Positions 1,784 to 10,042 of a stretch of DNA of 59,088 nucleotides are shown here, piece after piece (positions within the stretch are counted from its first letter, which is position 1; each line of letters starts with the position of its first letter). This stretch comes from Armatimonadota bacterium. GTDB lineage: Bacteria; Armatimonadota; SYMT01. The position numbers and the translations under genes were made by a program. Under the pieces are notes generated by a model. That model saw nothing but the letters and a program-made list of their open reading frames with translations, searched no databases and was not told the origin of the DNA. The stretch is from the NCBI GenBank assembly GCA_046292385.1, contig JBKBRF010000043.1, positions 1-59,088 of the forward strand, read 5' to 3'.

Positions 1784-2677
1784 TCACTCGTGGCGGCCGT
1801 GGCCGCGGAGCTCGTGAGTCTCGTCGGCCATCGGATCGAGGGTCGGGTCCGGCGGAAGCACGCCGTAGCGGCGCAGCAGCTCGCGCATCGCCTGCGTGAG
1901 CACCATAGCGCTGACCCCCGCCCAGAGCAGGACGCCGACGATGAACGTGCCCCAGCAGACTGCGGTGAAGACGAGCAGCAGGACGCCGAGCAGGAGGGTG
2001 TAAACCAGGTTGTCGAGCACCAGGAGGGCCGACTTCTTCAAGATGGCGCGGGTGGAGATCTCCTGCTCCGCCAGCAGCGGCCAGGCGTAGCACGCCATCA
2101 GCAGCCAGAAGACGAGCAGATAAGCGAAGAGAGCGCCGATCACCAGCACCACGGGGTGCCGCGACGACAAATAGAACGCGGCGTTGCCGGCCAGCAGCAG
2201 CGCGGCGCCGGCCTGGAGACCGGCCAGGGCCAGGCTCCGGCCGGCCGCGTGCCGCACGCCCCATGCCAGGTCGAACAGCTCCGGCTCGCTCCGGGCGGCG
2301 GCGTTGCGGCAGAACCGGAAGATCCCGGCCGCGAGCGGTCCCCCGATCAGGACCGCCGCGAGCGTGGCGAGCAGGACCGTCGAGGCGAGGGAGAGCGGCC
2401 CGGGAAGACCGCGGAAGAGCTGCAGCCCCAGCGCCACCGCGCCGAGGCTGCCGAAGCCGAGTGCCGCCGACCAGAGAAAGCTCTGGAGCAGCACGGTCCC
2501 GAGGTAGTCGTAGGCATCCCGCACTCCCAGCCGGAGCGCCAGGGTGAGCCGGGGCCGCGGGAGTGGTCGCCCGGCGCCGCCCGGCGGCTCCTCATCCGGC
2601 GCCGGGGGCGACTCTTCGCGCGGCTCCGTCCGCACGATCTCGCCGTCCGGCCCGCGCCGCCACATCCGCTCCGGCAT
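1784..2677 (-). CDS. Integral membrane protein, DUF624/YesL-like
   Basis: About 6 hydrophobic helices; GPLAAG...F and ILKKSALL motifs resemble DUF624; start overlaps the upstream stop at 2677. Confidence 0.6.
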   Translation of the reverse strand: MPERMWRRGPDGEIVRTEPREESPPAPDEEPPGGAGRPLPRPRLTLALRLGVRDAYDYLGTVLLQSFLWSAALGFGSLGAVALGLQLFRGLPGPLSLASTVLLATLAAVLIGGPLAAGIFRFCRNAAARSEPELFDLAWGVRHAAGRSLALAGLQAGAALLLAGNAAFYLSSRHPVVLVIGALFAYLLVFWLLMACYAWPLLAEQEISTRAILKKSALLVLDNLVYTLLLGVLLLVFTAVCWGTFIVGVLLWAGVSAMVLTQAMRELLRRYGVLPPDPTLDPMADETHELRGHGRHE

Positions 2678-5418
2678 CAGGGGGTGTCGTCCTTCCGCCT
2701 CCCCTTTTCGCTCTTCTGGCTCTTCTCGCCCTTTTCTTCGGTGTCGCGCTTCTTCTCCGAGTCCTTCTCCTCGGAGCGGCGGCGGGCGACCACGATCGCC
2801 GGCTTCTCCACCCCGTTAGGCCGGAACGGCTCGCGGGAGAAGACGATGGCGTCCAGGCTGCCGAAGTAGCGGCGGCTGCCGGTCTCCGCCTTCTCGGCGA
2901 TGGCGATCAGCAGCTCGTGCCGGCCCGCCTTCAGGGTAAGGCGGCCGAGAGAGAACCAGGCGAGGCCGCGGGCATACTCCTCCCCGGCCCGGGCCACGGA
3001 GCGCACCTCCTGCGCCGGCTCGTCATCGATCTGCCAGATCAGCGGGGAGGCCCCGCTTTCTCCGGGCGCCTTGCCGGCCACCCAGATCTCGTAGGAGGCA
3101 TCGCGAGAGATGTCGACGACGTAGCGCGCCTTGAAGAGGCCGGACGGCGGCGCGTCCGGGCGGTTGACGCGCAGCACCAAACTGGAGCTGGCCCCGCCGG
3201 CAAAGGTGACGCCGCTAAAGTTGTGCCCCGCGGGCCGCTCCGCCTCGATCCAGATGTAGGGCTGCAGGAGCTGCCGCAGGCGCTCCACGTACTGGTTCGT
3301 GGAGAGATAGGTGCCCATCGCGTTGCCGGGGGCGAGCTGCTTGCGGGACTGGTCGTAGATCGTCCGCATCGCCTTGACCTCGATCCCCTGTGTCTCCGCC
3401 TTCCTCAGCAGCGCGTCGAACTCCTCGAGCTGCGCCCCCGCCAGCTCCAGCGGGAAGAGCCGTCCGGCGTCGATCCCGGAGACGAGCACCGGCTCCGAAC
3501 CGAGCGTGAACTTAATCGTCTCCTTGCGGGTCTTCGCCTTGAGCTTGTTCCCCAGCGTGTCGTGCAGCTCGACCGGCGTCAGCTTGTCGACGAAGAAGGT
3601 CAGCTCCTGCTCGCCCGAGTTCGACCAGAAGACGGTGGCGCTCGGGATGTCACTGTCTCCGCCGAGCGGACGGACGATCTCATACGCCATGATCGAGTCG
3701 CCGTAGCGGAGGAACCGGGCCGGCGCGGAGGAGGGCAGCCACCAGACCCCGTTCGCCAGCCGGCTCAGGCGCTCGGAGCCGGAAATCGCCAGCGGATAGA
3801 AGCAGACCCGCGGCGTCTCCGCGAGCTTGGCTGTGTCCGCGGCGAGCGCGGAGGAGAGCTCCGCCGCCAGGCGCGGCGCGTCCGGCACCTGCTGCGGGTC
3901 GAGGTAGGCGCCGCGGAAGCCGGCTTCGCGGATGGAGGTCCAGGCGTTCCGCACGGCGGCGGCGTCGGCCAGCGGCGCCGGGCGGTCGCTGTCGTCGACC
4001 GGTCCCGCCAGGCGCGTGGCGATCAGCCAGGTGTTGCGGTCCGCCTCTTCCGCCTGGGCGAGGGCGAACGCCGCCGCTTCCGGCCCCAGGTCGGCCGGGC
4101 TCCCGTAAAGGTTTCCGCCCAGGCCGTCGTAGCCGGACGGCGACGGCGAGTTGGTAAAGATCGGATGGTAGGCGCTCCAGGAGAAGAGCATTGGCACGTT
4201 CGCGCCGCTCTGCTTCACCGCCACCGTGAGCCGGTTCATCCAGCGCTTGAGCGTCTCGGTGCGGAACTGGTCCAGGTCGTCCCAGATGGCGCTCTCCCGC
4301 GGCTTGCAGCGGTACGCCACCCCTTCCGCCGGGTCGAGCATCCAGCCGTCGCCGTCCGGCGGATCGTTGCGCGCCCACATCGGGACCAGCCGCGCCGCTT
4401 CCTCCACGCCGGGGATGCGGCGGTCGGTGGTGCGCCAGCGGATGTTGATCCCGTGGAGGTTGGAGCGGCGCTCGAGCCACTCCTGGAACGCGGCCCGGAA
4501 CTCGTCGCTGGTGGGGAAGACGCCCTCCTCCTGGCCCAGCGTGCCGTCGCCGGCGTCGAACGGGTCGAGGATGAACCGCAGGCCGGGGCCGAGCTTCAAC
4601 TCAGAGAGGCGCTGCTTGAGCTGCTCTCCATACCCCTCGGTCGCGCTCCAGAGATCGCCGAAGCTGCCCAGCTCTTCCGGCTCCACCTGGACTTCCGGCA
4701 CCACCAGGAGCTGCGCGCGGCTGCGGCCGACCAGCCGGGAGTTGCGAAGCTGGACGCGCACCGGCGTCACGCCCGCCTCCGCGACTGCTTCGCCGGTGGC
4801 GATGTCGTAGGTGTGGATCGCCTTGTCGAGCGGGTTCACCTCCGCCAGCACGTAGATCGACCGCCGCGCCCGGGGCGTGCGGACCTCCCAGGAGACCTGC
4901 TGCGCCGGCTTGAGCTGGGAGGCCGGGATGGCGATCGGTGTGATTCCGGGAGCAAAGCCGATCAGCGGCTCGCGCGAGCGGTCGCCGACCTTCAACCCGT
5001 ACAGGAATCCGCGGCTCTCCAGCGCGTCGATCAGCGCCTGGATCTCGCTGTTGCCGTTCTCCAGCAGGCCGCGCTGGGGATCGACCCAGAGGTCGCGCAC
5101 GCCGGCCGCCTTGAGCCGGTCGAGCTCTTCCTGGTCCTTCCGCAGCGTCTCCGCGGAGGGCGCTTTCAGATACTCGGACCGGAAGACTACGCCCGCCGGG
5201 GTGTAGGGCTGGCCGTCCCAGGTGAGGGCGTGGCTGCGCTCCACCGTCCACGGGTGCTGCTTACCGTCACGGTCGACGAAGACCCCCTCCGTGATCCCCT
5301 TCTCCGCGAAGGCGGCTCCACCACCCAGCACGCCGAGGGCCGAGGCGGCCAGGAGCGCCAGGAAGAGGAGGGCGCGGGGGGCGCGCTGGAGAGTACGACG
5401 CAGGAGGTGAGATTGCAT
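2677..5418 (-). CDS. Large secreted hypothetical protein (possible glycoside-hydrolase-like N-terminus, beta-sandwich C-terminus)
   Basis: 913-aa ORF with natural composition, a signal peptide ending AAFA and a charged C-terminal tail; fold assignment tentative. Confidence 0.7.
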   Translation of the reverse strand: MQSHLLRRTLQRAPRALLFLALLAASALGVLGGGAAFAEKGITEGVFVDRDGKQHPWTVERSHALTWDGQPYTPAGVVFRSEYLKAPSAETLRKDQEELDRLKAAGVRDLWVDPQRGLLENGNSEIQALIDALESRGFLYGLKVGDRSREPLIGFAPGITPIAIPASQLKPAQQVSWEVRTPRARRSIYVLAEVNPLDKAIHTYDIATGEAVAEAGVTPVRVQLRNSRLVGRSRAQLLVVPEVQVEPEELGSFGDLWSATEGYGEQLKQRLSELKLGPGLRFILDPFDAGDGTLGQEEGVFPTSDEFRAAFQEWLERRSNLHGINIRWRTTDRRIPGVEEAARLVPMWARNDPPDGDGWMLDPAEGVAYRCKPRESAIWDDLDQFRTETLKRWMNRLTVAVKQSGANVPMLFSWSAYHPIFTNSPSPSGYDGLGGNLYGSPADLGPEAAAFALAQAEEADRNTWLIATRLAGPVDDSDRPAPLADAAAVRNAWTSIREAGFRGAYLDPQQVPDAPRLAAELSSALAADTAKLAETPRVCFYPLAISGSERLSRLANGVWWLPSSAPARFLRYGDSIMAYEIVRPLGGDSDIPSATVFWSNSGEQELTFFVDKLTPVELHDTLGNKLKAKTRKETIKFTLGSEPVLVSGIDAGRLFPLELAGAQLEEFDALLRKAETQGIEVKAMRTIYDQSRKQLAPGNAMGTYLSTNQYVERLRQLLQPYIWIEAERPAGHNFSGVTFAGGASSSLVLRVNRPDAPPSGLFKARYVVDISRDASYEIWVAGKAPGESGASPLIWQIDDEPAQEVRSVARAGEEYARGLAWFSLGRLTLKAGRHELLIAIAEKAETGSRRYFGSLDAIVFSREPFRPNGVEKPAIVVARRRSEEKDSEKKRDTEEKGEKSQKSEKGRRKDDTP

Positions 5419-5493
5419 GGGTCTTCTTTCCGCGAGATGGAGAGCGCGGCGGATCCACGCGCCGGCCGGTGACGATGCGAGACGCTCCGGGGC

Positions 5494-7101
5494 TCAGTCG
5501 TGCGCCCGGATGTCCAGTACCGCCAACCCGTTCGCCAGAACGGTCGCCGCTGCCTCCGCAACCCGCCGCTGCCCCGGGGAGGGACCGGCCGACTCGACAC
5601 TCCCGAGAAATGCGTCGGCCGCTGTCGCGGTCTCCAGCAGGTACCGGGCCACTCGATACGGCTCGAGCTCCCCGGCGGCCGCCCGGACCTCGTCCGAAAG
5701 CTCGCCCAGCTTGCGAAGGAGAGTCCGCGCCGCCGGCTCAGCCGGCACCTCACTGCCGCCAGTTCCCACTGGCGCTCCCAGGGCGCGGAGCCGCGCCAGC
5801 ACTGCCCGCAGTCGCGGCAGGCCGTCCGCGTCTGGGATGGCTTCGTCACTGCCGAGCGGCAGCGAGAGCGCAGCTCCGGCGGGCCGTGAGAGATAGAGGA
5901 ACCGCGCGCACTCTACGCCTACACGCTCTATGACCTCATCGAGCAGCACGTTGTTCCCCGAGGAAGGAGACGCTTCCGCGCCAAGCGAGGAGCTGCGCAC
6001 CTGCACCGGCTGCAGGATGAGTACCCGCAGCGTCTCCGCGGGCAGGCCGAGCGCCTGGAGACCCGCCGCGGTCCGCCCCACGTAGGCGGCGTGCTCCGGG
6101 CCCCAGATGTCGACCAGCAGCTCGGACCCGCGCTCTGCCTTGTCGAGGTGGTAGGCCAGGTCGCCCAGGAAGTAAGTCGGCTGGCCATTGCTGCGGACGA
6201 GGGGGCGGTCCTCGTCGTCGCCGAAGGTGGTGGTGCGCAGCCAGACGGCGCCGTCCTGATCGTACACGTGCCCCGCGGCCCGGAGCCGCGCGAGCACTTC
6301 GTCGACCTTGCCGGAAGCCCGGAGCTCGCGCTCGGAGCGCCAGATGTCGAACTCCACCCGCAGCCGCGCCAGCGTCTCCCGCTGCGATTCCAGGATTGCC
6401 TCGCGGCCGAGGTCGATCGCGGCCTGCAGGCGCTCCTCCGGGCTCTGCCCCTCCGACGCGCCCAACCGCTCGCGGACTACGGCGGCAAGCTGCTGCAGGT
6501 GCTGCTCTTCCGTAGCGCCGGAGCCGGACGGGCTCACGTCCCGGGCGCGCGTCAACAGGTCGCGGCCGAAGCGCTCCACCTGGCTGCCGGCATCGTTCAG
6601 GTAGAACTCCCGCGTCACGCGGTGGCCGGCCCACTCCAGCACACCGGCCAGGGCATCGCCGAAGACCGCGCCGCGGCCGTGGCTGGCGTTCAGGGGCGCG
6701 GTCGGGTCGGCGCTGACGAACTCCAGGTGTACGGCCCGGCCGCCCTCTCCACGCCCGCTGCGCCCGTAGTCCCCGCCCTGCGACGAGATCGCCTCCAGGA
6801 TGCCCGCCAGCGCTTCCGGCTGCAGCCGGAAGAGGAGCGTGCCCGAGGCGGAGGCTTCTACCTCGGCGACTCCGGCCGGCAGCTCCAGCCGCTCCGCCAC
6901 GCAGCGGGCCGCCTCTCCCGCCGAGCGGCCGGAGCCGCGGGCCAGCAGCGCCGTCACGTCGCAGCAGTAGTCGCCCTGGGCCGCGGAGCCGGGAGTCGTC
7001 AACTCAACTACTCGGGCCTCTTCCCTGCGCAGCAGACCCTCGCCCGCGCAGCGCTCCAGGGCGCCGGTCACCGCTTCCACCAACTGTTCGCGTATCGACA
7101 T
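5494..7101 (-). CDS. Arginyl-tRNA synthetase-like protein with degenerate catalytic motifs
   Basis: ArgRS landmarks EFVSADPT, REFYLNDAGSQ, DGAVWLRTT.FGDDEDR, TYFLGDLAYHLDK; HIGH reads NASH and there is no MSK motif. Confidence 0.85.
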   Translation of the reverse strand: MSIREQLVEAVTGALERCAGEGLLRREEARVVELTTPGSAAQGDYCCDVTALLARGSGRSAGEAARCVAERLELPAGVAEVEASASGTLLFRLQPEALAGILEAISSQGGDYGRSGRGEGGRAVHLEFVSADPTAPLNASHGRGAVFGDALAGVLEWAGHRVTREFYLNDAGSQVERFGRDLLTRARDVSPSGSGATEEQHLQQLAAVVRERLGASEGQSPEERLQAAIDLGREAILESQRETLARLRVEFDIWRSERELRASGKVDEVLARLRAAGHVYDQDGAVWLRTTTFGDDEDRPLVRSNGQPTYFLGDLAYHLDKAERGSELLVDIWGPEHAAYVGRTAAGLQALGLPAETLRVLILQPVQVRSSSLGAEASPSSGNNVLLDEVIERVGVECARFLYLSRPAGAALSLPLGSDEAIPDADGLPRLRAVLARLRALGAPVGTGGSEVPAEPAARTLLRKLGELSDEVRAAAGELEPYRVARYLLETATAADAFLGSVESAGPSPGQRRVAEAAATVLANGLAVLDIRAHD

Positions 7102-7214
7102 ATCCGAAATCTCTGTCCTGAACTGCCGCCGGGGCGCCGTGCCCGCAGCCGAAGCAACATCGTTCTATCCGCCCACGCCGGGAGTCGGGACTCGCGGCAA
7201 GCCCGGCGGCGAGG

Positions 7215-8345
7215 CTAAAACTCCACCAGACGGAACGGCAGCGGCACGAGCCACTGGATCAGTGCCAGCAGCGCGAAGAGAGTCGCGAAGCCGCTGAACA
7301 CCTGCAGGATGCCCATGTTCCAGACCCGGCGGGGGAAGCTCAACCGCTCTCCCGGCTGGACCTGGTACTTCTCCATCAGCTCCTGTCCCGCCGCGATTCC
7401 GTTCTCCAACTGCCGGAGCGTCGCCGGCCGTGTCGTCACGTACTGCTGCAGCACGCCGCCCAGGCGCCGCCAGAAGTAGAGGGTCGCGACCAGCGTCAAC
7501 ACCGGCACGAGGTCGCCGAGAATGGGGTTCAGCCACCAGACGGTACTCGCCACCATCACGCCGGCCACCAGGTTGGTGCCGCAGCGAGGGTGCACTCGCG
7601 GCTTGGCCCGCACGATCTCCGGCAGCAGGTCGTCCCCCGCCTCGATCGCGTGTACCACCTGGTGCTCCGCCGCGTGGAAGCCGGTGACCCACGAGAGACG
7701 GAACAGCAGCCCGAACATGCCGAACATCAGCAGCATCTGCAGCAGCGGAACCGGCACCATAGCCAGTGTCGGACCGGATGTCAGCCAGCGGTCGAGCCAG
7801 CCGTCCGGCGAGAGCAGCTGGGCCGAGACGAGCTCGGCGACCACCGAAAGCAGGCCGAGATACATGCCGGTCGACATCAGGGCGAAGTCGCCCACCCCGC
7901 CGCGCACGCCGCCGCCGGTAAGGTAGACGCCGAACGGGGTCGCCATCCCGCCGATGATCGGCGGCCGGATCCGCCCGCAGACGGCGCTCGCCAGCTCGGC
8001 TTCCCCAACCACGCCGATCACTCCGCCCAGCGAATCGAGCACCGGCGCGTGGCGGAGACCGTTGGCGCGGAAGACTTCCAGCGCGGCGGCGGCCGACATC
8101 GCCTCCGGAAGCACCACGTAGCTCTCGAAGGCGAGGTCCCCCACCCTCGCCCGATCCGGCGGCAGCTCCGGCTGGGCCAGGAGCTCCGAGATACTCTCCG
8201 GCGTCACCAGCCCCACCAGCCGGCCGTCTGCCGCCACCGGCACCGCCTTTACCGTGGAGGCGCGCAGCAGCTCCGCGGCTTTGCCGACGCTGTCCGACGG
8301 GTGGAGGCTCGGGGTCCGGACGGCGAGCAAGCCTATCGTGCGCAT
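7215..8345 (-). CDS. CBS-pair plus DUF1385 (YqhQ-like) membrane protein
   Basis: N-terminal CBS pair (AVPVAADGRLVGLVT; HAPVLD..G.VIGVV); DUF1385 motifs IGGMA, FHAAEHQVVH, RVHPRCGTN, LQQYVTTRP. Start taken at ATG 8345. Confidence 0.85.
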   Translation of the reverse strand: MRTIGLLAVRTPSLHPSDSVGKAAELLRASTVKAVPVAADGRLVGLVTPESISELLAQPELPPDRARVGDLAFESYVVLPEAMSAAAALEVFRANGLRHAPVLDSLGGVIGVVGEAELASAVCGRIRPPIIGGMATPFGVYLTGGGVRGGVGDFALMSTGMYLGLLSVVAELVSAQLLSPDGWLDRWLTSGPTLAMVPVPLLQMLLMFGMFGLLFRLSWVTGFHAAEHQVVHAIEAGDDLLPEIVRAKPRVHPRCGTNLVAGVMVASTVWWLNPILGDLVPVLTLVATLYFWRRLGGVLQQYVTTRPATLRQLENGIAAGQELMEKYQVQPGERLSFPRRVWNMGILQVFSGFATLFALLALIQWLVPLPFRLVEF

Positions 8346-8475
8346 GGGGGAGTCCTTGCCGGTACGCCGCGATCCGGACGGGGTCGGCGGCGCGGGCCGC
8401 CCGAGTTGCAATCCGCAGGCACGTGTGCTACCATTCGTGGTCGAGAACAGCTTTTCTGGGAGAGGAGAGACTATT

Positions 8476-8691
8476 ATGGCGAACCGCTGCGCGATCTGCG
8501 ACAAAGGTCCCCAGTTCGGTCAGAACATTCGGCACCCGCACTCCGGCTCGTGGGCCCGGCGTGCCCCCCGCACCAAGCGGCGCTGGCTGCCGAACCTCCA
8601 GAGCGCCAAGATCTTGGTCGGCGGGCAGCCGACTCGCATCCGCGTCTGCACCCGCTGCCTGAAAGCTGGGAAGGTCCTGCGGGCCGCCTGA
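8476..8691 (+). CDS. rpmB: 50S ribosomal protein L28 (zinc-ribbon form)
   Basis: MANRCAICDKGPQFGQN...TKRRWLPNLQ...RVCTRCLKAGK; RBS AGGAG upstream. Confidence 0.95.
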   Translation: MANRCAICDKGPQFGQNIRHPHSGSWARRAPRTKRRWLPNLQSAKILVGGQPTRIRVCTRCLKAGKVLRAA

Positions 8692-8729
8692 CGCCCATCC
8701 ATCCTCTCCCGGCATCCGCCAGCACTTTC

Positions 8730-8884: not shown

Positions 8885-10042
8885 TCAGCGGGGGCGTGAA
8901 TAGGCCGGCCGCTTGCCGCCGTACCCGCCATAGCCCCCCGCCCGCGGTACCGTGGGCGGCGTGCTGCGGACCGAGTCGCTCAGGGAGATCACCAGCATCT
9001 CCAGCGCCAGGTCGGGGTCGGCCACGCCGTGCTCCCACCCCTTGCTGCCGGCGTCCGCCACGGCCAGACGGTCGAGCGCCTGCTGCAGGCGGTCCCAGGA
9101 GATGCGCCCGGCCTGCTCCCACAGCCGCCCCCGCAGCCACGCGGAGCCGCCCCGGTAAAGGCTGCCGTCTTCCGGAAGCATCGCCAGCACCTCCGGCGGC
9201 ACCTCGTCTCCCTCCGCCTTAGGCAGAATGCCGCGCTCCCGCAGGAACGCCGCCTGCGCCACCTGGCGCAGCGTGCGGGCCAGCATCGCCATCACCTGCT
9301 GCGCGGCGACGTCGCTCTCGCGGAGCTGCCGGAGCAGGTCGAGCGCCTGCGCCCGGTTGCCGGCCATCGTGGCGTCGAGCAGGTGGAAGACGTTGTCGTC
9401 CGGCGGCGCCGCGACGAGCAGGTTGACGTCCGCGGGGCTAATCGTAGCGCGGTCGCCGACGTACGCCGCCAGCTTGCGCGTCTCGTGCAGCAAGCGCTGC
9501 GAATCGGTACCCACCCGCTGTGCCAACTGGGCCGCGGCCGCCGGGGCCAGCTTCTTACCCAGCAGCTCCGCCTCGCGGACGGCGAGCTGCGCCAGCTCCT
9601 CCGGCTTCATCAGGGTGAACTGCCGGACCTCCCCCACCGCCTTCAGCGCGGCCATCAGCTTCTCGCCGAAGACGGAGCGGGAGCGGCCGCCCCCCTCCTC
9701 CGCGTAGGCGACGAAGATCACCGTGCTGTAGTCCGGCAGCTCGCGCAACCCGTCGGCGAGAACCTCCTGCGTGCGCTGGTGCTTGCCCCCCTTCAGCTTG
9801 CCCGCGTTGGTGACCACCACCACGCGCCGCTCCGAGAACATCGCCCGGTCCCGCGCCGCGTGGAGGATCGTCTCGCCGGAGACGCCGGAGCTGCCCGCGT
9901 CGATATACTCGACGTCGAGATCGCGGTCCTCCGGCGGCACCAGCTCGTCGAGGAGCGCCGCCAGCGCCTCTTTCTTCCGCAGCTCCTCCTGCCCCCACAG
10001 GAGGTAGGCGACCGTCCGCTTCGGGGTCTTGCGCGGCGGCAT
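8885..10042 (-). CDS. holA: DNA polymerase III delta subunit
   Basis: YLLWGQEE, MFSERRVVVV, ETRKLAAY, NVFHLLDA pattern and typical length. Confidence 0.85.
   Translation of the reverse strand: MPPRKTPKRTVAYLLWGQEELRKKEALAALLDELVPPEDRDLDVEYIDAGSSGVSGETILHAARDRAMFSERRVVVVTNAGKLKGGKHQRTQEVLADGLRELPDYSTVIFVAYAEEGGGRSRSVFGEKLMAALKAVGEVRQFTLMKPEELAQLAVREAELLGKKLAPAAAAQLAQRVGTDSQRLLHETRKLAAYVGDRATISPADVNLLVAAPPDDNVFHLLDATMAGNRAQALDLLRQLRESDVAAQQVMAMLARTLRQVAQAAFLRERGILPKAEGDEVPPEVLAMLPEDGSLYRGGSAWLRGRLWEQAGRISWDRLQQALDRLAVADAGSKGWEHGVADPDLALEMLVISLSDSVRSTPPTVPRAGGYGGYGGKRPAYSRPR

Follow-up and report, generated by a model that had tools for sequence, protein, structure and literature searches.

The window analysed here, the whole stretch of 59,088 nucleotides from an Armatimonadota bacterium (NCBI GenBank assembly GCA_046292385.1, contig JBKBRF010000043.1, positions 1 to 59,088 of the forward strand), encodes a protein related to arginyl-tRNA synthetase (ArgRS) at 5494..7101 on the reverse strand. 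On the evidence of its motifs, relatives and genomic position, there is about an even chance that this protein is a non-charging, ligand-binding pseudo-synthetase, the product of a displaced ancestral argS. Two kinds of ArgRS have to be told apart, for which labels are coined here: type 1 is the Bacillus/Campylobacter kind (SANPTGPLHxGH, MSKR, NPVYYVQYAHAR, and a terminal ...PERM), and type 2 is the E. coli/eukaryote kind.

The gene in the window would be the ancestral type-1 argS of its Armatimonadota lineage. A type-2 ArgRS, encoded on contig C16 of the same genome, would have taken over the charging of tRNA-Arg, to judge from its intact motifs and strong conservation, and the freed old gene would then have shed features that an ArgRS uses to bind tRNA and to stabilise the transition state of ATP, namely the lysine of the KMSK-type loop, the motif that reads the anticodon loop, the C-terminal Met and, in the window genome, also the Asn of the N-terminal Add1 domain. 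These losses would abolish or cripple aminoacylation; the fold, the Rossmann core, and the residues E127, Y310, D314, K321, H141, N169/D170, W333, H337, Y340, and R343 are retained. Selection probably preserves the ligand pocket; arginine or a guanidino compound may still be bound in the old active site and a signal relayed to some partner or process.

An ArgRS homologue in a genome with a second ArgRS

The reading frame begins with ATG and continues through 535 codons and a stop without internal stops, intact as the first-pass annotation had described it. Three domains can be assigned, all on the reverse strand as are the motifs discussed below: an N-terminal Add1 (D-loop-binding) domain (residues 1-105, 6787..7101, Pfam Arg_tRNA_synt_N), a Rossmann-fold catalytic domain (residues 106-395, 5917..6786, with a PF00750 match over residues 122-319), and a DALR anticodon-binding domain (residues 396-535, 5497..5916, Pfam DALR_1). 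The Pfam scores are all weak (34.7 bits for tRNA-synt_1d, 30.9 for DALR_1, and 20.7 for Arg_tRNA_synt_N, slightly under the cut-off of 21.5), and the match to the argS equivalog TIGR00456 of NCBIfam reaches 205.8 bits, where the curated cut-off is 261.65. The AlphaFold2 (AF2) model, built on a 66-row alignment, reaches pLDDT 91.4 and pTM 0.92, and in this predicted structure pLDDT drops below 50 solely at residues 374-381, the former KMSK loop. Ranks 1-20 among the matches listed by Foldseek for the model are ArgRS structures throughout (e.g., 3fnr with E 3.2e-30 and 1iq0 with TMq 0.80). By Pfam, AF2, and Foldseek, the protein has the Add1, Rossmann catalytic, and DALR architecture and the fold of ArgRS; it is genuinely homologous to ArgRS and no random open reading frame (ORF).

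The genome (G000; 7.04 Mb in 91 contigs, 98.45% complete) matches PF00750 at two places, the window gene with 33.9 bits and contig C16 with 415.7 bits. The C16 protein is an ArgRS of the E. coli/eukaryote type, scores 526.6 bits against TIGR00456, carries SSPNLAKEMHIGHLR, MHIGH, and a Lys in the HIGH loop, and ends in LEQM, i.e., with the C-terminal Met. The second canonical argS that the first-pass annotation had proposed to look for is thus present, and the window gene is very probably not the working ArgRS, a view of that annotation which agrees with the intact motifs of the C16 protein and with the same motif loss in relatives of the window protein. Orthologues of the C16 protein in the other genomes of family f1 searched are 62-70% identical to it. 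A tRNA scan of the genome gave five ordinary tRNA-Arg genes (contigs C5, C7, C11, C39, and C40; anticodons CCG, UCG, GCG, UCU, and CCU), and no special or odd tRNA-Arg partner emerged from it. Five other 'Arg' calls made by aragorn look spurious (76-92 nt, without a proper D-arm sequence); a credible tRNA-Arg(ACG) was not found in the scan, in which the sole ACG call is 84 nt long and spurious-looking.

The coexistence of two ArgRS genes recurs across the phylum. In a set of 41 genomes, 14 contain two ArgRS-like loci and 27 a single one. The two-locus genomes comprise all seven of family f1, G008 and G036 of f3, G010, G025, and G038 of f5, and G018 and G031 of f13; in each, one copy scores 418-550 bits and measures about 590-655 aa, and the type-1 copy scores just 62-327 bits. 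Type 2 is present in 14/14 genomes carrying a degenerate type-1 copy. Among the single-locus genomes, hidden Markov model matches are split within one frame in 4/27, and internal stops occur in no match.

A wider survey of 161 genomes of the phylum, with the type-2 protein of the window genome as the query (E <= 1e-60), detected type 2 in 36 of them: f1 5/5, f3 2/2, f5 15/15, f13 6/6, f18 2/4, f20 2/4, f28 1/2, f29 1/9, f30 1/1, and one genome of f37 (G091). At least two TIGR00456 matches were obtained for 30 of these 36 genomes, only some of which were inspected, and such match counts differ from copy numbers. In three genomes type 2 accompanies a type-1 copy of canonical level and near-canonical motifs (G093, 390 bits; G139, 348 bits; G154, 393.5 bits). 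The genomes of the phylum can be ordered from those with type 1 alone, through those with both types in near-canonical form (G093, G139, and G154) and those in which type 2 accompanies a degenerate type 1 (14 genomes), to those with type 2 alone (e.g., G023 and G091). The loci of the second group (L054 in G093, L055 in G139, and L056/L057 in G154) resemble early stages of displacement. The replacement of an essential gene can thus be seen at several stages in one phylum, and the series allows a direct test of how displaced genes survive; so far the finding is of more interest for evolution than for biochemistry. Identities to the type-2 protein of the window genome fall into tiers of 62-70%, 42-48%, and 35-40%, which suggest either deep divergence or several acquisition events.

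Motifs and residues lost and retained

All substitutions quoted in the first-pass annotation occur in the translation, and each can be placed at the residue level. In the Add1 domain, GF(I/L)NF has become GTLLF (SGTLL, residues 86-90, 6832-6846). The HIGH loop reads SADPTAPLNASH (residues 130-141, 6679-6714), and in its HIGH-equivalent tetrapeptide, N138-A-S-H141 (6679..6690), the first His is gone and the second present. The loop equivalent to KMSK is GAEASPSS (residues 374-381, 5959..5982, with EASPSS at 376-381), without Lys or Arg. Within the DALR domain DGLPRLRAVLAR replaces NPVYYVQYAHAR (residues 426-437, 5791-5826), and the protein ends in DIRAHD, the C-terminal Met being absent. WGPDHHGY is replaced by WGPEHAAY (residues 333-340, 6082..6105), where W333, H337, and Y340 are kept, Asp is changed to Glu, and the second His is gone. 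NDAGSQ (residues 169-174) is kept, as is TYFLGDLAYHLDK (residues 309-321, 6139..6177), the helix of the arginine side-chain pocket (T309-Y310...D314...Y317-H318...K321). A Lys in the HIGH loop can compensate for a missing KMSK-loop Lys; the window protein has a Lys in neither loop. It falls short of ArgRS proper on four of the features tested: its score lies under the TIGR00456 cut-off, and the Lys in the loop, NPVYYVQYAHAR, and a Met at the C-terminus are missing.

The retained residues can be read against the structure of E. coli ArgRS with arginine, in which the guanidinium group is held by D118, Y313, and D317, while N123 and H132 contact the main chain of the amino acid, the latter by a hydrogen bond (PMC3956977). 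According to the same source, arginine binding is abolished by D118A and by D317A, and activation of arginine by ArgRS requires bound tRNA (PMC3956977). By motif spacing, E127, Y310, D314, and K321 of the window protein are the equivalents of D118, Y313, D317, and R324, and all four are present. E127 (6721..6723), the counterpart of the residue that forms the guanidinium salt bridge, is invariant in alignments A1, A2, and A3, and E127, Y310, D314, Y317, K321, R324, and H337 are invariant in an alignment of 66 sequences. The same spacing would place H141 at E. coli H132 and position 132 at N123. As ArgRS needs bound tRNA, and as the catalytic Lys and the tRNA recognition motifs are absent from the window protein, useful tRNA charging has probably been lost.

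Which of the losses are diagnostic was judged by grouping the proteins by the number of ArgRS loci per genome, not by motif, with 14 sole copies on one side and 14 second (displaced) copies on the other. The Lys of the (S/G)KR loop is found in 14/14 sole and 0/14 displaced copies, NPVYYVQY(A/G)H(A/T) likewise in 14/14 and 0/14, and the C-terminal Met in 13/14 and 0/14. The HIGH motif behaves differently: its first His is already gone in 10 of the 14 sole copies (SVPH, TVAH, TVGS, SVAH, SIPH, LVVQ, and NVVN), and canonical type-1 ArgRSs of other phyla have VVVN, TAAG, TTAS, or HVGN at this site. Since sole-copy, presumably working ArgRSs also lack the first His, the HIGH change is no mark of inactivity here, and the earlier equation of HIGH loss with loss of ATP use does not hold. 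The class I HIGH signature seems dispensable in many type-1 ArgRSs, for which it is a poor marker of activity. Sole copies without HIGH but with MSKR, NPVYYVQYAHA, and the C-terminal Met include L029 and L030 (G028 and G013), L031 (G037), L022 (G011), and L026 (G007), and further otherwise canonical type-1 ArgRSs without HIGH are P0032, P0036, P0057, P0077, and P0035.

The losses are not peculiar to the window protein. Its best database homologues share 39-47% identity with it and come from metagenomes and from Armatimonadota; their sources name them arginine-tRNA ligase, and the aligned ones have degenerate features in common with it. Among the best 120 homologues, the SKR loop, NPVYY, and a terminal Met are all missing from about 30 and all present in roughly 90. 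The motif-loss comparison that the first-pass annotation had suggested for orthologues thus gives the same losses in relatives. As such homologues carry the name of the ligase, automated pipelines may overcount functional ArgRS genes.

Retention was then scored by domain. The basis was the 148 columns with a conservation of at least 90% among the 14 sole copies, and a column counted as kept when 10 or more of the 12 displaced copies scored retain it. Mean retention is 0.72 in the catalytic domain (45/86 columns kept), 0.48 in Add1 (1/14), and 0.35 in DALR (7/45). The residues kept in displaced copies include E127, N169, D170, Y310, D314, Y317, H318, K321, R324, W333, H337, Y340, and R343. The net charge of the three domains shows no difference between sole and displaced copies. 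In the displaced copies of f13, with ORFs of 460 and 480 aa, Add1 is missing or shortened.

The protein could instead be a still-working but unusual second ArgRS, of low activity, stress-specific, or inhibitor-resistant, with non-canonical recognition of tRNA-Arg, although this is hardly probable. Such an enzyme would account for the conserved catalytic core, with the second His (H141), D/E336-H337, and the arginine pocket; 10 of the 14 sole copies of the phylum, moreover, work without the first His of HIGH. Canonical KMSK is missing from the ArgRSs of many organisms (PMC3956977), and second synthetase copies that confer inhibitor resistance exist, e.g., the isoleucyl-tRNA synthetase copy mupA (PMC5388404). 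Against a working enzyme stand the absence of Lys from both loops of the window protein, and of the KMSK-loop Lys from all 14 displaced copies, the collapsed conservation of DALR and Add1, extending to the truncated Add1 of f13, the uniform loss of the C-terminal Met, and the score under the curated equivalog cut-off. The five ordinary tRNA-Arg genes of the genome, with no odd extra one that would need a special enzyme, point in the same direction. The f5 copies speak for some continued activity, as they keep an anticodon-motif variant of their own and a C-terminal aromatic residue.

Those f5 displaced copies (L046-L049, L040, L045, and L042) share NPAYAVQLLPSR or NPAYAARL.PSR at the anticodon motif and end in ...(D/E)RF instead of ...PERM; even the second His of HIGH is gone from them. 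They may have a role different from that of the f1-type copies, possibly an RNA-related one.

Selection, divergence, and points against the proposed role

No stop interrupts the homologous frame in any of the 14 displaced copies, which represent four families and have identities of 33-41%. In the ratio of non-synonymous to synonymous substitution rates (dN/dS, omega), pairs with dS above 1 (or -1) were treated as saturated and not used as evidence of selection. Three unsaturated pairs come from genus g59 of f5: omega of the displaced copy is 0.114 for G084/G140 (dS 0.465), 0.217 for G084/G131 (dS 0.628), and 0.194 for G140/G131 (dS 0.724), the corresponding values for type 2 being 0.177, 0.161, and 0.149. 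The displaced copy in g59 is as constrained as the housekeeping type-2 ArgRS and is under purifying selection. The pairs G010/G038 (omega 0.25 at dS 1.29) and G001/G006 (omega 0.40 at dS 1.70) are saturated. The dN/dS comparison proposed in the first-pass annotation thus gives purifying selection in g59 (0.11-0.22) and, for the f1 same-genus pair, a saturated value.

These results bear on the possibility that the gene is a functionless relic heading for loss, its frame still open because decay is slow or because transcription or translation of its operon is needed; this reading is unlikely. High-GC DNA does yield long chance ORFs, such as the 375-aa ORF on the opposite strand of the ArgRS-like gene, but a relic hardly explains open frames in 14/14 copies of four families at such low identity, or omega values at unsaturated dS on par with those of a housekeeping ArgRS. 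Decay would also be expected to strike uniformly, and the observed retention is domain-selective; among 24 members of the clade, whose identity to the window protein is 38-46%, 56 columns do not vary at all, and the fold is predicted with confidence. One contig of an RNA library, 242 nt long and near-identical to the gene at 6541-6782 (one mismatch), hints at transcription weakly at best, because DNA can occur in such libraries; the other RNA-labelled run on the window gene is probably DNA, and stretches that no contig covers carry no meaning.

Several observations weigh against the pseudo-synthetase proposal, and a number of them would suit a relic. The second copies form a gradient of degeneration from 327 down to 62 bits, and six of the 36 type-2 genomes (G023, G032, G057, G090, G091, and G110) show no second TIGR00456 match, so that the gene is dispensable in some lineages. 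Just three clade-specific 'gained' columns, all weak, were found in the 12 displaced copies, and no clear gained motif; such scarcity would be compatible with relaxed constraint no less than with a new role. The unsaturated dN/dS values come from f5 only, the sole same-genus pair of f1 being saturated (dS 1.7, omega about 0.40). In this pair (G001/G006) the displaced copy is 38% identical, the CBS-DUF1385 and 913-aa genes beside it 56%, and type 2 63%; in f1 the displaced copy diverges much faster than its neighbouring genes. The window protein, to which the nearest relatives are just 40-47% identical, deviates from the consensus of its clade at 21 of the 123 columns conserved there, and only one of the 24 members deviates at more; it is among the most diverged copies and may be under weaker constraint than its relatives. 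In soil metagenome contigs of near-identical strains from two runs, the 11 variants listed comprise five synonymous and six non-synonymous changes (48 further differences lie in the stretch beyond these), too few to decide for or against neutrality. As many working ArgRSs lack canonical KMSK and HIGH, motif loss alone is imperfect evidence of inactivity. Finally, position 132, at which an Asn would contact the main chain of arginine, is Asp in the window protein and N/D/Q/E/Y in the clade. With the guanidinium-binding residues invariant and the Asn that reads the alpha-amino and carboxyl groups variable, a ligand other than free L-arginine is possible.

Branch lengths also fit decay: in a quick maximum-likelihood tree the displaced copies have branches of 0.6-1.7, against a median of 0.55. 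The 12 displaced copies of f1, f5, and f13 form one clade (SH-aLRT 98) that adjoins the sole copy of G007, and those of G036 and G008 lie outside it. Because of the long branches, this clade may be inflated by long-branch attraction, and it was not used to count displacement events.

Genomic slot, neighbours, and comparable systems

Directly upstream of the ArgRS-like gene, across a gap of 113 nt, lies a gene for a membrane protein that matches Pfam CBS and DUF1385 (7215..8345, reverse strand), as the first-pass annotation had noted. It is followed by the divergent rpmB (8476..8691, forward strand; ribosomal protein L28, named from a reading of its translation), which keeps this position at 10 other loci. 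Synteny was determined by tblastn of fetched loci with the neighbouring proteins of the window. The order rpmB, CBS-DUF1385, and ArgRS, with rpmB divergent, is found beside the displaced copies L033-L039 and L041-L045, in part with the gene of a 913-aa protein downstream. Identical order flanks the sole-copy canonical type-1 argS of L026 (G007, a genome of the same taxonomic order), L019, L022, L031, L024, L023, L032, and L025. As the order is common to sole-copy argS, the window gene is the positional orthologue of the ancestral argS, with type 2 as a newcomer elsewhere. The first-pass annotation had regarded it as a retained paralogue; by synteny it is not a duplicate but a displaced ancestral gene in the original slot of the phylum. 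For the same reason the adjacency to CBS-DUF1385 is ancestral and uninformative as to a new role.

An older role of type-1 ArgRS with a protein partner, for instance the co-transcribed CBS-DUF1385 membrane protein, might alone hold the gene in place. The order of CBS-DUF1385 and ArgRS recurs in many families, whether the ArgRS copy is canonical or displaced, and a scan of 5300-8700 found no terminator-like site, hence none between the two genes, and one promoter-like site, inside the CBS-DUF1385 gene, both being weak evidence. The slot can even be occupied by a type-2-like ArgRS (L013 in f20). Gene order by itself is weak evidence of a partnership, and conservation in the ArgRS-like protein is centred on the active-site pocket, with no obvious new surface, so that this explanation is quite improbable. 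A complex prediction for the ArgRS-like (A3) and CBS-DUF1385 (A4) proteins returned a score of 0.00, i.e., no answer, which counts neither way on binding.

The pseudo-synthetase proposal can be extended, tentatively, to a new ArgRS-derived family in which the original argS of several Armatimonadota families was repurposed as a sensor of arginine or guanidino compounds after displacement by a foreign type, perhaps together with the always-adjacent CBS-domain membrane protein; from the conserved residues and the gene order this is possible rather than probable. Of the new roles suggested in the first-pass annotation, arginine sensing would fit the retained pocket residues, from which the role is extrapolated.

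Non-charging synthetase-like proteins (HisZ and others) are textbook cases of enzyme repurposing. HisZ is a HisRS-like regulatory subunit of ATP-phosphoribosyltransferase, without an anticodon-binding domain and with HisG as its partner; GluQ and EpmA still work as ligases, on new acceptors. Like these, the window protein is synthetase-derived, exists beside a true synthetase, and has kept an amino-acid pocket while charging features are gone. Unlike HisZ, it is of full length, and it is a displaced original rather than a duplicate. With canonical type-1 ArgRS (C. jejuni 3FNR, phmmer E 4.6e-46, and T. thermophilus 1IQ0) it shares the three-domain fold, the arginine side-chain pocket residues and, in the case of the phylum's sole copies, the genomic slot; it differs in the absence of the loop Lys, NPVYYVQYAHAR, the C-terminal Met, and the Add1 Asn, and in its coexistence with another ArgRS.

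Amitochondriate eukaryotes are also described as having ArgRS genes of two separate origins within a genome; the redundant ancestral mitochondrial ones were lost or retained, and the choice was linked to the identity element at tRNA position 20 (Igloi 2021, PMC8318970). The abstract of that study concerns eukaryotes and describes no degenerate, non-charging retained copy. Human DALRD3, a DALR-domain protein that targets arginine tRNAs for m3C (PMC7237682), is likewise ArgRS-related and non-charging; in the window protein, by contrast, DALR is the least conserved domain and the catalytic core is kept. Literature searches, including passages of PMC5388404 and PMC11580382, found no full-length ArgRS-derived pseudo-synthetase in bacteria, and in PMC9437257 'arginyl' occurs only in a reference. 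NrtL (NF045898, an ArgS-related anticodon-binding family) was rejected as an assignment: the window protein scores 80.5 bits against a cut-off of 340, the model has 327 positions against 535 residues, and the weak similarity lies in the N-terminal 160 residues. No paper on NrtL was found in the literature searches.

Downstream of the ArgRS-like gene, the 913-aa protein (2677..5418, reverse strand) has a signal-like N-terminal segment and a Lys/Glu-rich C-terminal tail; it belongs to no Pfam family, the search giving a single sub-threshold chance match. Six f1 loci have a gene for it downstream of their ArgRS-like gene, and in G007 one lies next to the sole-copy argS; identities are 48-53%. The gene upstream of rpmB, holA (8885..10042, reverse strand; DNA polymerase III delta subunit), is ordinary. 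Rfam gave no match over the whole window, so neither a T-box nor a riboswitch was found ahead of the ArgRS-like gene.

At two loci of family f20 (L013 at G032:C39, and G110:C53), the ancestral slot beside CBS-DUF1385 and rpmB holds a type-2-like ArgRS (IDYSSPNIAKPFGIGHLRS ... LERM, 37% identical to the type 2 of the window genome), as if type 1 had been replaced in situ. A metagenome scan with the alignment of the degenerate clade returned at least 80 loci, which were canonical ArgRSs or fragments and included no close relative of the window gene, the back-translated patterns being too general. At 6205-6275 of the window, short contigs of four runs pile up to a summed depth of 42-64, against 0-9 in the adjoining bins, with 7-10 mismatches each; they represent argS of other organisms, because the segment encodes DGAVWLRTTTFGDDEDR, which is conserved in the ArgRS of many organisms. 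In the CBS-DUF1385 protein, which also matches DUF6391 slightly under the cut-off, H224, E227, and H228 (HAAEH) and H252-P-R-C-G256 are invariant in 16 orthologues, and these residues suggest a metal-binding membrane enzyme with a cytoplasmic pair of CBS domains.

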